From Promethearchaeota archaeon (GTDB lineage Archaea > Asgardarchaeota > Lokiarchaeia > Sigyniarchaeales > SOKP01), in contig JBHLNS010000005.1 of assembly GCA_048941285.1 (NCBI GenBank), positions 66,169 through 130,168 on the forward strand: DNA of 64,000 nucleotides, in the 5' to 3' direction. The notes beneath the pieces were generated by a model. It saw only the letters and a program-made list of their open reading frames with translations, searched no databases and was not told the DNA's origin. Of the stretch, positions 342 to 22,181 are shown piece after piece; position 1 is the first letter of the stretch, and every line of letters begins with the position of its first letter. Made by a program: the position numbers and the translations under genes.

Positions 342-571
342 ATGACAGAATATAAAAGAGCAAAATGTCCCCAATGTGGCAATGAGAACCCACGCAAGCT
401 TCATGAAGAACCGGATAAAAATAATGTGCTATACTACAGCATAGGTAAAGCTATTTCAGCATACCGCTGAGGCAGGGCACTCCGGTTTATGCAAAATTTA
501 AATTTACATAAAATTTAGAGGCAACATCCATGAAATGCGGGGATTGCGGGAGTCTGTTCAAGAAGAACTAA
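342..571 (+). CDS. Small zinc-ribbon protein (56 aa) split by two BHB introns; exons 342-442, 472-495, 526-571
   Basis: Spliced: MTEYKRAKCPQCGNENPRKLHEEPDKNNVLYYSMQGTPVYAKSMKCGDCGSLFKKN, with two CxxC knuckles. The unspliced frame stops at TGA 468-470. Confidence 0.85.
443..471 (+). other. 29-nt BHB intron 1 in the zinc-ribbon mRNA
   Basis: Central helix CAGC(437-440)/GCUG(466-469); bulges AU^A and AG^G; intron stem GGUA/UACC; exon stem GUGCU/GGCAC. Ligation creates AUG and restores the frame. Confidence 0.88.
496..525 (+). other. 30-nt BHB-like intron 2 in the zinc-ribbon mRNA
   Basis: Central helix UGCA(490-493)/GGCA(520-523), 3 of 4 paired; bulges AA^A and AC^A; 9-bp intron stem UUUAAAUUU/AAAUUUAGA; removes in-frame TAA 509-511. 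Confidence 0.78.
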
Positions 572-6031: not shown

Positions 6032-6069
6032 TTTAAATTATAATGAGAAAAATAAAACGGTGAGTTTAT

Positions 6070-6600
6070 GTGAGTGAAAAAGGAAAAATAATTGTAAAGG
6101 CCCTTGTGACAGGTGGGAGAGTATAAATTATCAATCACATCGATTAAGCCCCGAATGCGTCAGGAGGACCTCCTATTGGCCCAGCTGTTGGCCCGACAGG
6201 GATAAATATTAAAGATGTAGTTGATGAGATCAACAAGCAAACTACTGTCTTTAAGGGACTAACGGTACCAGTTAGAATTGAATGTGACGCAGAAACAAAA
6301 CAGTTTGAAATTTTTATTGAAACACCATCTACAGCATCACTTTTACTTAAAGAAGTTGGTGCCGAAAAAGGAAGTTCTGCTGCTTCAGAACAAAAAATTG
6401 GTAATTTAACGCTTGAACAAATTCAAAACGTTGTTGATGGTAAAAAAGAGAAATTTTTAGAAAAGACTTATAAAGCTGCTATAAAATCAGTGTTAGGAAC
6501 AGCATTATCTGTAGGTTTAACAGTTGAAGGAGAAGATCCTAGAATCATCCAAAAAAGAATTGAAAATGGAGAATACGATGATAAAATAAGAGGTGAATAA
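6070..6600 (+). CDS. rpl11: 50S ribosomal protein uL11, interrupted by a 36-nt BHB intron; exons 6070-6119 and 6156-6600
   Basis: Spliced [46 protein letters not shown]...TPSTASLLLKE...GTALSVG (164 aa), in the canonical position before rpl1-rpl10-rpl12; unspliced frame has TAA at 6124 and 6145. Confidence 0.93.
6120..6155 (+). other. 36-nt BHB-type intron in rpl11 mRNA
   Basis: Central helix UGGG(6114-6117)/CCCG(6150-6153); bulges AG^A and AA^U; h' GU/GC; distal exon stem UGAC/GUCA. Boundaries could shift by 1-3 nt. Confidence 0.82.
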
Positions 6601-6606
6601 TAGAAT

Positions 6607-7335
6607 TTGAAAGTAGATGATAAATTGTTAAAAAAATCACTAAACGCTGCTATAGATTTTTCTATAGTCAAAAAAAAGGGTTTTAAAGATAAAATAAGAA
6701 AATTTGATGAATCTATTGATCTTATTATAAATATTAAAGATGTTAATTTAAATGATCCAAAAAACCGTATCGATAAGGAAATTATTTTATCGAATGAAAT
6801 CATTGCAAATGATAAACCGAATATATGTGTGATTGCTTCTGACGAAATATTATTAGAAGCAAAAAAATTAGGGCTTGAAACAATCGATTCAGATGGTTTG
6901 GTAAAATTAAATAATGAGGAGAAAAAATATAAGAAAAAATTTGCGAAGAAATATGATTATTTTGTTGTAGAAGATAAAATGATGAGAGATGTGGCTCGAT
7001 ATTTAGCAAGATTTCTTGGACCTGTTGGTAAAATGCCAAAACCTTTCCCTACAGGATATGGTATTATTTCTAGTACAGAAGATTTAAAAACTGCTTACGA
7101 ACGATATAAGAAAATTATTAGGATTCAAATGAAAAAACAACCTATTATCTTCGTTAAAATTGGGAAAAAATCGATGAACAAGGACAAATTGTTTGAAAAT
7201 ATGAAGACTGTAGTAAATTTTATAGCAGAACAAATGCCTCATAGGTTCAATAATTTTAAATCAATGTATCTTAAATCTACAATGGGGAAACCTGTTAAAG
7301 TAACAGAAGAATTCCTGAAAACTATTGAGGTGTGA
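6607..7335 (+). CDS. rpl1: 50S ribosomal protein uL1
   Basis: RKFDESIDL, LGPVGKMPKP, KSTMGKP; operon context. Confidence 0.95.
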   Translation: MKVDDKLLKKSLNAAIDFSIVKKKGFKDKIRKFDESIDLIINIKDVNLNDPKNRIDKEIILSNEIIANDKPNICVIASDEILLEAKKLGLETIDSDGLVKLNNEEKKYKKKFAKKYDYFVVEDKMMRDVARYLARFLGPVGKMPKPFPTGYGIISSTEDLKTAYERYKKIIRIQMKKQPIIFVKIGKKSMNKDKLFENMKTVVNFIAEQMPHRFNNFKSMYLKSTMGKPVKVTEEFLKTIEV

Positions 7336-7339
7336 AGTA

Positions 7340-8236
7340 ATGATCAAAAATAAACATATACCCAAATGGAAAATAAATGAAATTAATAAATTAGTTGATT
7401 TGTTTAGAAATTACAAAAATGTTGTTGTTATTGAAGTTGCTCATATTAATGATATGCAAATTCAGACTATGCGTAAAATATTAAGAGGAAAAGCCGTATT
7501 TAGAATGTCTAAAAAATCCCTTCAGGTCCGTGCTATAGATGAATATAAAAGTGAAACCAAAAAGAAAAATTTGGATCAATTAGCAGATCACATCCCCGGT
7601 CAATCAAGTCTAGTTTTTACTAATCTTGACATTTTTGAATTAAAAAATATATTTTTAGAAAACGAGTGGATGGTTCCTGCCAAACCTAATGAAATCACTC
7701 CAGTAGATATCTGGGTTCCTGCTGGAGACACTGGATTACCAACGGGACAAGTTATTAGTGAACTAAATATGACACTACGTTTACCTACTAGAATTATGAA
7801 TGATACTATATATATTCGAGAAGATACAAGAACACACAAAGCGGGTGATGTAGTGGATGTAAAGCAAGCAGCGGTGTTGAAAAAATTAGGAATTACACCA
7901 ATAGAATCTTTGATTAAAATCCATTTTGCCTGGAGTGATGGAGAAATTATCCCCGAGGAAATATTATACATGAATATAGATCAATTTAATCAAGATTTTG
8001 CAAAGGCTTATAGAGAATCACTTGCAATTTTATTCGAAATGCCGTTCCTCGTTGAAGAAATGACAGAAGATTATGTTCAAAAAGCGGCTTCTGAAGCTAA
8101 CATATTGAATTCTATCATTTTCGGGGAAGGACTTAAGGTACCAAAAAAAGAAGAACCCCTTAAAGAAGAAGAAAAAGAACCTGAAGAAAAAGAAGAAGAA
8201 TCAGAAAGTGTGGGGATTGGTGGATTATTTGGATAA
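7340..8236 (+). CDS. rpl10: 50S ribosomal protein uL10 (P0)
   Basis: IPKWK, VPAGDTG, acidic tail ending GIGGLFG; ATG at 7340 after GAGGTG. Confidence 0.95.
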   Translation: MIKNKHIPKWKINEINKLVDLFRNYKNVVVIEVAHINDMQIQTMRKILRGKAVFRMSKKSLQVRAIDEYKSETKKKNLDQLADHIPGQSSLVFTNLDIFELKNIFLENEWMVPAKPNEITPVDIWVPAGDTGLPTGQVISELNMTLRLPTRIMNDTIYIREDTRTHKAGDVVDVKQAAVLKKLGITPIESLIKIHFAWSDGEIIPEEILYMNIDQFNQDFAKAYRESLAILFEMPFLVEEMTEDYVQKAASEANILNSIIFGEGLKVPKKEEPLKEEEKEPEEKEEESESVGIGGLFG

Positions 8237-8305
8237 AAAATTAACAATTTTTTGAAATAAAAAAAAATTTATAAAAATAATGATTAAAAAAAGAGGTTAG
8301 ATAAA

Positions 8306-8596
8306 ATGGAAAGTATATATGCAGCTTTATTACTCCACAAAGCTGGAGGTAAAATTAACGAAGCAAATGTAGAAAAGGTATTGACAGCGGCAGGCGCTAA
8401 AGTTGATAAATCAGAAATCTCAAAGCTAATTGCTGGTTTAAAACAGACAAAGATTGAGGATATTATAAAATCTGCTAGCGCTATGCCCGCAATTGCTGCT
8501 CCAAAAGAAGCTCCAGCAGAGAAGAAAAAAGAGGAAAAGAAGAAAAAAGAAGAACCCGAGGAAGAAGAGCCCACAGGGATTGGAAGTTTGTTTTAG
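8306..8596 (+). CDS. rpl12: Ribosomal stalk protein P1/L12
   Basis: MESIYAALLLH, Ala-rich hinge, acidic tail GIGSLF. Confidence 0.95.
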   Translation: MESIYAALLLHKAGGKINEANVEKVLTAAGAKVDKSEISKLIAGLKQTKIEDIIKSASAMPAIAAPKEAPAEKKKEEKKKKEEPEEEEPTGIGSLF

Positions 8597-10612: not shown

Positions 10613-11215
10613 ATGTTGTTATTAATCTTTCAAAATGCCTTTTTAGATTTTATTACTAGACCTCCTGGTTCAATGCTTTTTGTTATACTATTAGCCTTAA
10701 CCACAGCTTTAATTAGTGCAGGTTTAACTAAATTATTAGTAGACAGTGAGGAAATAAATCGTAAGCAAAAACAAATTAAATCACATGAAGAAGATAAAGA
10801 AAAGATAATAGCCTTAGCAGAGATTGACCCTGAACGTTATAGAAAGGCCCGAAAAAAATGGGAACGTAAAGATGCTATGTTTAAACAATCGCAACAAAGG
10901 ATGTCTTTGCAAAGGATGAAACCAACCTGTATAACATTTCTTCCGATGATTATTATCTTTGGTATCGTGAATACAATGTTTGCTGGCAAACCGGTAGCGA
11001 TGTCTCCTATGAACGCTAACGATGTTCCCTTAATTGGTGGCTTCATTGCAGCAGGTAATCTTTTCATAAATTTTACAGCATGGTATTTTCTTTGTTCATT
11101 GGGATTTAATACTCTTGTTCAAAGGATCCTTAAACTTCAAAGTCAAGCTTCGGGTGGTATGGGAGGTATGTTTGCGGGTCAAAAAGCAAAATCTTTAGAA
11201 TTTCCAGATGTATAG
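10613..11215 (+). CDS. DUF106 / EMC3-TMCO1 (Oxa1 superfamily) membrane insertase
   Basis: TM-coiled coil-TM layout, MKP...FLPMII, WYFLCS; canonical secY neighbour. Confidence 0.88.
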   Translation: MLLLIFQNAFLDFITRPPGSMLFVILLALTTALISAGLTKLLVDSEEINRKQKQIKSHEEDKEKIIALAEIDPERYRKARKKWERKDAMFKQSQQRMSLQRMKPTCITFLPMIIIFGIVNTMFAGKPVAMSPMNANDVPLIGGFIAAGNLFINFTAWYFLCSLGFNTLVQRILKLQSQASGGMGGMFAGQKAKSLEFPDV

Positions 11216-11242
11216 CAAACTTAGTTTGTTTTAAAGAAAATA

Positions 11243-11373
11243 CGCAACGGGAGGGATTTATTCTTATAAGAAGTATTTTCTTATACATTGAACCCCCGAG
11301 TGCATTCACACACCGGCTTTCTGGGATAGCATCCACTCCAAGCCGGCGCCGTACCGGGCTAGGCAACCGTTGC
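11243..11373 (-). tRNA. tRNA-Ser(GGA) with two BHB introns (17 nt at 37/38, 11335-11319; 30 nt at 58/59, 11287-11258)
   Basis: Acceptor GCAACGG/CCGUUGC, G73, long variable arm, anticodon stem CCGGC/GCCGG; central helices UUGG/CCAG and GUUC/GAAU; mature length 84 nt. Confidence 0.9.
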
Positions 11374-11426
11374 ATACAAAAAATTATAAAGAGTAAAAAG
11401 ATTATTTAAGATTTTACAGATATAAA

Positions 11427-19453: not shown

Positions 19454-19595
19454 TGCATATCAACTTATTCAATAATTTTTTATTAATTAACTAAAGTCTC
19501 TTTTTATTATTTCAATTATAAATTAAAAAGATAAAAATTTTTATCTTTTTTCTGATTTAATTAGTTTATAATAATTAATCATTTTCAATTTACTT

Positions 19596-19741
19596 GGGCC
19601 ATTAGCTCAGATTGGTTAACAAGTTTTTATATGCTTGGTCAACAAGCGCAGGTCTTATAAATGACTATCGGACATACAGTAAATAGAACTGTCCGATAAA
19701 GTAAAAACCTGAGATCCGGGGTTCAAATCCCCGATGGCCCA
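19596..19741 (+). tRNA. tRNA-Ile(UAU) with two BHB introns (25 nt at 21/22, 19619-19643; 46 nt at 38/39, 19661-19706)
   Basis: Acceptor GGGCCAU/AUGGCCC, A73, anticodon arm CAGGU-CUUAUAA-ACCUG, T-arm CGGGG-UUCAAAU-CCCCG; central helices UGGU/GUCA and UUAU/GUAA; mature length 75 nt. Confidence 0.88.
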
Positions 19742-19898
19742 TTTTCAATAGATTTTTTAAGAAATAATTTTGATATTTAGACTAATATTCGTGAAACATC
19801 TATTTTACGCTTATTCATATATACCTTAAGGATATGTCTAGATATATTTGCATAATATTATTGATTAAAATTAGGAGTAAAAATATTAGAAAGAAGTT

Positions 19899-22088: not shown

Positions 22089-22181
22089 TGGCGGCCCTCG
22101 AGGGGAATCGAACCCCTACCCCTCCGCAGGATAACTGGGTTTGAAGCCCAGCGTCAGAGACCACTCCAACCGTCAAGGGCC
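22089..22181 (-). tRNA. selC: tRNA-Sec(UCA), 9/4 archaeal/eukaryotic fold, CCA encoded, intron-less
   Basis: 9-bp acceptor GGCCCUUGA/UCGAGGGCC, 7-bp D stem, UCA anticodon, long variable arm, 4-bp T stem, G73. Confidence 0.95.

Follow-up and report, generated by a model that had tools for sequence, protein, structure and literature searches.

A predicted BHB-type mini-intron in the rpl11 gene of a Promethearchaeota archaeon

The rpl11 locus and its interrupted frame

The window, that is, the whole stretch of 64,000 nucleotides analysed here, comes from an archaeon of the Promethearchaeota, a phylum within the kingdom Promethearchaeati (NCBI) that corresponds to Loki-type Asgard archaea. The host genome is a metagenome-type assembly of 101 contigs (3.55 Mb, 94% complete, 3.4% contamination). 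The G+C content of the window is 29.6%, and the rpl11-rpl1-rplP0-rpl12 cluster occupies positions 6070–8596. The rpl11 gene, encoding ribosomal protein uL11, has the following features.

6059..6063, + strand: GGTGA, a putative Shine-Dalgarno-like site, 6 nt 5' of the rpl11 GTG start, its function suggested by the sequence
6070–6600, + strand: rpl11 (uL11), whole gene, GTG start at 6070, TAA stop at 6598–6600
6070..6119, + strand: exon 1, 16 codons plus 2 nt (AG); the peptide agrees with the N-termini of uninterrupted orthologs
6120..6155, + strand: predicted BHB-type intron at position A, 36 nt, with two in-frame TAA codons; also found by motif-free alignment
6156..6600, + strand: exon 2, a single nucleotide followed by 147 codons and the TAA stop

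The frame opened by the GTG codon is interrupted by two TAA codons, at 6124–6126 and 6145–6147, both within an insertion of 36 nt situated in the conserved GG..GPP motif of the translated frame, exactly as the preliminary description had it. Beyond the second TAA, the frame stays open for 147 codons until the terminal TAA. Exon 2 matches the Pfam families Ribosomal_L11_N (E-value 3.4e-17, profile positions 10–58 of 58) and Ribosomal_L11 (3.8e-17), both above the cut-offs. Since the former match begins at profile position 10, positions 1–9 are encoded upstream of the insert, in exon 1. The region of the insert has 55% G+C, compared with 32.5% in the rest of the gene and about 30% in the window.

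Two in-frame stops in an essential gene, found in a fragmented and slightly contaminated metagenome-type assembly, could indicate a pseudogene or a dead allele with a small insertion, or else an assembly artefact. However, rpl11 is present in a single copy in this almost complete genome, and exon 2 has zero internal stops and is 74–91% identical to the orthologs from the same genus. The operon context is normal, with rpl1, rplP0 and rpl12 situated downstream; the earlier statement that the remainder of uL11 is undecayed and lies in its usual operon thus stands. Moreover, the same insert occurs at the same site in ten distinct sequences from several assemblies, always between intact exons. A dead gene or an artefact is the least probable of the explanations considered here.

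We also checked whether uL11 might start 3' of the stops, the case that the preliminary description had named as refuting. The first ATG, GTG or TTG codon in the rpl11 frame after the stops is at 6490, the first 111 codons of exon 2 being free of start codons, and hence exon 2 cannot be translated separately.

Another explanation, requiring no RNA processing, is programmed translational bypass or stop-codon read-through. In gene 60 of phage T4, ribosomes bypass a short untranslated gap inside the coding sequence, with a stop at the start of the gap. The rpl11 gene resembles it in having a short gap with an early stop; moreover, the insert in this genome is a multiple of three, and having the conserved GG shortly before the stop is superficially reminiscent of a take-off site. 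However, the T4 bypass, a ribosomal event, needs matched take-off and landing codons, whereas inspection by eye of the region around 6118–6160 of rpl11 reveals no such match, and the length of the gap is not fixed. Inserts of 28, 29, 31, 35 and 37 nt in relatives shift the frame, and homologous gaps ranging from 28 to 37 nt at three sites are unlike a single hop. Read-through would add 12 residues to the conserved GG..GPP loop; besides, TAA terminates 32 of the 46 long frames in the window, and hence is an ordinary stop here. Finally, BHB geometry predicts the ortholog junction in all 35 insert copies (see below). Bypass or read-through is thus very improbable, being only slightly more credible than a dead gene.

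A self-splicing group I or group II intron was rejected based on size, as the insert has 36 nt and the ribozyme core of such introns, hundreds. The only Rfam match at the gathering thresholds in the whole window was tRNA-Sec.

Splice register, predicted structure and splicing machinery

In a BHB motif, according to the rule derived from tRNA numbering, the central helix forms between the exon bases at −6 to −3 and the intron bases at −6 to −3, while cleavage on each strand follows the second of the three bases of the bulge. All 36-nt deletions with a start at 6108–6127 were scored by this rule. Sixteen of these deletions restore an open frame. The deletion of 6120–6155 is the only one of the sixteen with four of four central pairs (UGGG/CCCG), the next best having three, and the only one to yield GGSAS, as in uninterrupted orthologs. 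The predicted motif consists of the following elements.

6114..6117, + strand: UGGG, 5' strand of the central helix, made up of the exon bases immediately preceding the 5' bulge, four of four paired
6118..6120, + strand: 5' bulge, A G/A, predicted cut after 6119, the sole ortholog-consistent junction
6121..6149, + strand: intron-side helix h', G6121-C6149 and U6122-G6148, plus the distal hairpin
6133–6136 and 6142–6145, + strand: distal hairpin of h', AAUC/GAUU with the loop ACAUC, also seen by RNAalifold
6150..6153, + strand: 3' strand of the central helix, CCCG, internal to the intron, from the register test, covariation and RNAalifold
6154..6156, + strand: 3' bulge, A A/U, predicted cut after 6155, junction codon AG+U (Ser)
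6102..6167, + strand: offset exon–exon pairing, CCUU 6102–6105 with GAGG 6164–6167 and UGAC 6107–6110 with GUCA 6159–6162

On the intron side, 2 bp abut the 5' bulge and are followed by the 4-bp hairpin. The canonical hBHBh' structure has both 3-nt bulges closed by flanking helices. This is not the case for intron A: the exon-side helix h1 has zero pairs, and the offset exon–exon pairing closes the motif across an internal loop and does not abut the 3' bulge. Hence the motif is relaxed (HBh'). The preliminary description had predicted this class from an imperfect proximal exon helix, together with the unique fully paired UGGG/CCCG register, the intron at 6120–6155 and the junction GGG AG^U GCG (Gly-Ser-Ala). 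The register survives comparison with the other frame-restoring deletions, the junction agrees also with the ortholog sequences, and the class is retained, as the exon-side helix is missing while the intron-side and central helices are kept and covary.

The folding energy of the region 6095–6180 as a single sequence is −18.6 kcal/mol against the mean of −19.2 for shuffled sequences (z 0.19), and 113 of the 200 shuffles fold at least as stably. Thus, the structure is supported by geometry and comparison rather than by folding energy.

Comparison was made in an alignment of the ten distinct copies of intron A. The central helix (columns 17–20 with 54–57) is paired in all 40 cells, in ten copies out of ten, with the variants UA (8), UG (1) and AU (1) at one pair and GC (9) and GU (1) at another. 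Over all helix cells, 94.4% are paired, compared to 31–57% when the partners are slid. Four pairs are changed on both sides, and the observed values are reached by none of the 500 shuffles, although such controls overstate the significance, as the sequences are kin, and the structure was named by the analyst. On the intron side, the paired fraction is 95% in helix 3 and 97.5% in helix 4, with three pairs changed on both sides. The pairs of the exon helix never vary and hence are uninformative; the pair 6110:6159 forms in only two copies of the ten. RNAalifold, applied to the same copies, independently recovered the central helix and the distal hairpin. Near the 5' bulge it favours G6119:C6149 over G6121:C6149, which would leave a 1-nt bulge; in alignment columns, these are the pairs 22:53 and 23:52 versus 24:53 and 25:52 of the rule-based reading. 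The pair 25:52 can form in nine copies out of ten, and 23:52 in seven.

The genome encodes two EndA paralogs, on contigs C70 and C68, both above the Pfam cut-off. The 198-aa protein (alpha) aligns end to end with PDB entries 3p1z_B and 3ajv_B, has the Tyr/His/Lys pattern, judging by sequence reading, and keeps the K-P-R loop. In the EndA of Aeropyrum, the loop residues K44 and R46 confer broad substrate specificity, according to the available part of PMC3241643. The 201-aa paralog, again from reading the sequence, has no His where the alpha subunit has the catalytic one, and it matches the N-terminal half of the fused EndA models, as expected of a structural subunit. For the Asgard archaea, the (alpha-beta)2 type of EndA with a broad-specificity loop has been described (PMC5829648, accessible text). 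RtcB is also present (E-value 1.6e-170). The host therefore appears equipped with both an endonuclease for relaxed motifs and an RNA ligase, and its EndA may be expected to cleave a relaxed motif by analogy with the crenarchaeal enzymes.

Transcript data were sought in 24 sampled sequencing runs. Only one RNA run contained as much as 7% of the words sampled, and three RNA runs and one DNA run were compared. The three RNA runs produced one contig, covering part of rpl1 (6718–6919), two of the runs having yielded none; thus no RNA contig from them covers 6070–6600. In the DNA run, a contig ending at 6110 continues into the sequence of an intron-less relative, and is uninformative on splicing.

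Taken together, these observations lead us to infer splicing of the rpl11 transcript, and we consider it highly probable that 6120–6155 is a spliced relaxed BHB intron of the rpl11 pre-mRNA, carried as a tolerated passenger. In the transcript, UGGG (6114–6117) would pair with CCCG (6150–6153) and place the splice sites in bulges on opposite strands; a two-subunit, (alpha-beta)2-type EndA would cut after 6119 and after 6155, and RtcB would join the exons, creating the codon AGU and an mRNA for normal uL11. The unspliced RNA would yield only an 18-residue peptide. The intron lies in what is the gene's sole G+C-rich stretch, where Gly and Pro codons could supply the strands of stable helices. It would be a passenger like those filling the tRNA genes of this lineage, and not a conserved regulator.

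Inserts in the rpl11 genes of the genus and their turnover

Exon 2 was used to search 41 genomes, the present one and 40 relatives, of which 39 matched; contigs of one genome per species added a set of 54 loci. Six loci from other genera, all uninterrupted at the relevant sites, were left out, and the resulting 78 loci comprise 18 duplicates, six partial sequences and 54 distinct ones. Among the latter, 26 have no interruption, and the other 28 have inserts, which occupy three positions. The numbers of state changes given below refer to a tree constructed for 51 of the 54 sequences from the 1750 nt that follow the intron region, the remaining three having been dropped for having less than 900 nt available.

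Insert A: site GG^SAS, 36 or 37 nt (28 nt in L059), 10 carriers; at least 8 state changes on the tree, with 9 carriers
Insert B: site PPI^GP, 35 or 36 nt (31 nt in L058), 13 carriers; at least 10 state changes on the tree, with 12 carriers
Insert C: site GIN^IKD, 28 nt, frame-shifting, 12 carriers; at least 9 state changes on the tree, with 10 carriers

Five sequences have A alone, eight B alone, ten C alone, three A and B, and two all three. In the latter two, L024 (from genome G005) and L079, the introns of 37, 36 and 28 nt are situated within the first ~105 coding nucleotides. As most insert lengths shift the frame, coding insertions are ruled out.

The preliminary description had proposed comparing the junction residue with orthologs. 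Out of 21 same-genus sequences lacking insert A, 20 match the predicted junction peptide and one reads GGAAS. Further, 19 registers were tried on each of the 35 insert copies, and every time the highest count of central pairs was reached by a register, alone or tied, that is consistent with the orthologs, a result to be read with regard to ties and to the fact that the anchors were set after the motif had been seen.

The C introns are canonical (hBHBh'), with the GCAU/AUGY central helix and an intron helix of up to 8 bp. In 11 distinct copies, pairing amounts to 100% in the central helix and to 95.5% in the 8-bp intron helix; the shuffles provide a weaker control here, as 4 of 500 reach the percentage of paired cells and 32 of 500 the number of doubly changed pairs. 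The B introns have an exon helix of 5–6 bp in 12 copies out of 13, plus three or four central pairs. This exon helix, GGNCC/GGNCC, is supplied by two Gly-Pro codon pairs. The B copy in L058 is fully canonical, and the A copy in L059 is canonical or nearly so.

Sister sequences only about 0.03 substitutions per site apart differ in their intron content. At that, homologous inserts have the mean column identity of 89%, flanks included, and hence are too alike for independent invention. Together with the patchy distribution on the tree, this implies either frequent precise loss or allele exchange by recombination, and the tree fits either. Loss mediated by reverse transcription finds no support in this genome, where no RVT_1 match was found at 94% completeness.

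These data bear on a further explanation, in which the spliced intron is a regulatory gate, so that the rate of EndA and RtcB would set the supply of uL11 and couple ribosome production to tRNA processing. It has some attraction: with stops at 6124 and 6145 and no downstream start, uL11 cannot be made from unspliced RNA; across the genus, three different introns are crowded into the first ~105 nt of rpl11; and negative regulation was proposed earlier for the cbf5 intron (PMC2738675, available part). On the other hand, each of the three introns has changed state repeatedly, even between close sisters, and 26 of the 54 sequences have no intron at all; such fast turnover, with half of the sequences intronless, argues against a conserved regulatory role. 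Moreover, the A introns of L001 and L006 differ at 9 of 36 positions (hand count), suggesting little constraint beyond the helices, and the 55% G+C of the stretch also fits the clustering. The preliminary description had suggested that splicing could gate translation of the operon's first gene. This finds no support: even very close relatives differ in whether they have the intron, and rpl1 is preceded by a separate GAGGTGA and starts at a TTG of its own. A tolerated passenger fits these facts better than a conserved switch, and we regard the gate as unlikely, if appreciably less so than bypass or a dead gene.

Other interrupted genes and relation to known systems

A motif-free comparison of the window with syntenic stretches of about 80 kb from five relatives recovered 6120–6155 exactly and led to a second interrupted gene, encoding a protein with a zinc ribbon.

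342..571, + strand: gene of the zinc-ribbon protein (56 aa) with two candidate mini-introns; the ortholog in G002 is one uninterrupted ORF of 57 codons
443–471, + strand: intron Z1, 29 nt, perfect CAGC/GCUG central helix
496–525, + strand: intron Z2, 30 nt, three central pairs plus A.G, 9-bp hairpin

Removal of both restores an ORF of 56 residues; the protein matches no Pfam family above the cut-off. Z1 is present in 14 of the 30 loci fetched and absent from G002, G018, G004 and G012. Its central helix varies as GGUA/UACC, AGUA/UACU and GAUA/UAUC, that is, by compensatory changes. In G016, the Z2 site is occupied by a different insert, of 31 nt.

A wider census was based on the relative G022, from which 24 regions of 20 kb (about 480 kb in total) were compared with the present genome, yielding 549 DNA alignments and 582 local protein comparisons. 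Besides rpl11, no convincing protein-gene intron was seen among the inspected indels, in a census that has little sensitivity where exons are short and does not register introns common to G022. Further candidates from these comparisons include the indels C94:65394, C65:24841 and C69:95826, the G022 inserts of 137, 92 and 25 nt, and the weak protein-comparison matches C13:7884 and C81:51859. Of those inspected, the candidates C35:30199, C33:34276, C101:4104 and C1:17349 proved to be gene ends or intergenic spacers, and C30:106699, an ordinary in-frame indel of 17 residues in a membrane protein on the other strand. Two of the G022 inserts, of 137 nt at L113 (~15730, − strand) and of 92 nt at L116 (~9935, + strand), lie within conserved protein alignments and could be larger introns or small mobile elements.

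Other ways of counting were less useful. A structure-plus-frame scan of the contigs up to C66 for intron lengths of 12–150 nt found BHB registers no commoner than shifted decoys (for example, 366 versus 387–403 and 1358 versus 1242–1277), and hence cannot count introns; it would miss the rpl11 intron itself. The HSP-pair census missed rpl11 because exon 1 is too short, and the end-extension census of inserts was rejected as too noisy. Overall, mini-introns in protein genes look rare rather than pervasive.

The tRNA genes of this genome are a different case. ARAGORN finds only 13 of them in 3.55 Mb, seven with introns, which suggests that standard detection misses most of the tRNA genes because of their interruptions. 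Three tRNA loci were considered in the window.

~11150–11400, − strand: tRNA-Ser(GGA), called by ARAGORN only when the 30-nt T-loop insert at 11260–11289 is removed
19560–19760, − strand: probable interrupted tRNA, with extra 25 nt at 19620–19644 in the window
22089–22181, − strand: tRNA-Sec, found by ARAGORN; Rfam score 59.4 bits

The tRNA-Ser gene also has a 17-nt intron in the anticodon loop, and its T-loop insert is absent from four of five relatives. For the region 19500–19800, ARAGORN produces conflicting tRNA calls with and without 19620–19644; at this locus, three relatives have inserts of 30–31 nt near 19713–19728. The tRNA-Sec genes of G006 and G023 have inserts of 30–34 nt at positions matching ~22106 and ~22165 of the window.

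Turning to known systems, cbf5 is, according to PMC2738675, the only archaeal gene with confirmed splicing, a few others being predicted, and in the searchable literature it is the only archaeal protein gene with a confirmed intron of the endonuclease type. The cbf5 intron of the Desulfurococcales and Sulfolobales resembles that of rpl11 in being short, of the BHB type, situated in a protein gene and hosted by genomes with a heteromeric EndA; the presence or absence of both is lineage-specific, and both cause errors of gene prediction (PMC2738675 and PMC5829648, as far as their accessible text goes). Unlike the crenarchaeal cbf5, the host gene here encodes a ribosomal protein and the lineage is Promethearchaeota (Asgard). 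Also unlike cbf5, rpl11 may have up to three introns in about 105 nt, and their turnover among close relatives is much faster. Splicing of cbf5 has been shown experimentally, whereas for rpl11 we infer it. The rpl11 intron is not an ortholog of the cbf5 one, since its host gene is rpl11 by the Pfam matches. It is a real feature and, judging from the genomic data, very probably a spliced BHB mini-intron like that of cbf5, in a gene and a lineage that are new for this kind.

The non-canonical tRNA introns of the Asgard archaea have the same size range, BHB or relaxed-BHB boundaries and the same presumed enzyme, and follow the same pattern of repeated gain and loss as the rpl11 introns, according to the available parts of bioRxiv 10.64898/2026.10.13.758758 and PMC11291895. 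In contrast to tRNA introns, the host of the rpl11 introns is an mRNA, and hence excision must preserve the reading frame. Both sources deal with tRNA genes, and their available parts report no introns in protein genes. More generally, the searchable full-text literature, which excludes subscription journals and supplements, yielded no account of BHB introns in protein-coding genes of the Asgard archaea.

In eukaryotes, the HAC1/XBP1 mRNAs are cut independently of the spliceosome at sites defined by stem-loops and sealed by a tRNA-type ligase, RtcB in animals. The rpl11 case would be similar in the stem-loop-defined cuts in an mRNA and the type of ligase. However, the HAC1/XBP1 endonuclease is Ire1 and not EndA/Sen, and this splicing is a demonstrated stress-regulated switch, whereas regulation by the rpl11 intron would be hypothetical. 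Splicing of this type is touched on in the accessible text of PMC13149111 and PMC8718801.

If the rpl11 intron is spliced as predicted, the cases of the cbf5 type are joined by the gene of a universally conserved ribosomal protein and by one or more other genes, all from Asgard archaea. The gene structure of the Asgard archaea bears on ideas of how eukaryotic genes became interrupted, and three introns precisely present or absent in near-identical relatives form a natural series for studying intron arrival and departure. There is also a practical side. Standard gene callers would report such an rpl11 as truncated or as a pseudogene. This gene is a common phylogenomic and completeness marker, and the interruption can thus distort completeness values derived from markers, as well as alignments, for these genomes.

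As a more speculative generalisation, which we put forward tentatively and as having a minor though real chance of being correct, the genus may host a small population of EndA-dependent mini-introns in active turnover, which colonise both mRNAs and tRNAs, are gained repeatedly and lost precisely, and land where the coding sequence supplies the BHB motif, for example in G+C-rich Gly and Pro codons. On this view, protein-dependent splicing of mRNA would belong to normal gene expression in prokaryotes closely related to eukaryotes, and splicing of ribosomal-protein mRNAs may be coupled to tRNA maturation.

Finally, introns A and C of rpl11 share the 9-mer ATTTCGATT and the hairpin loop AUUUC (L024:1332–1526 and other loci), and Z1 of the zinc-ribbon gene has the same AUUUC loop. 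These similarities could mean either that the introns share an ancestor or that a loop of this kind is favoured.
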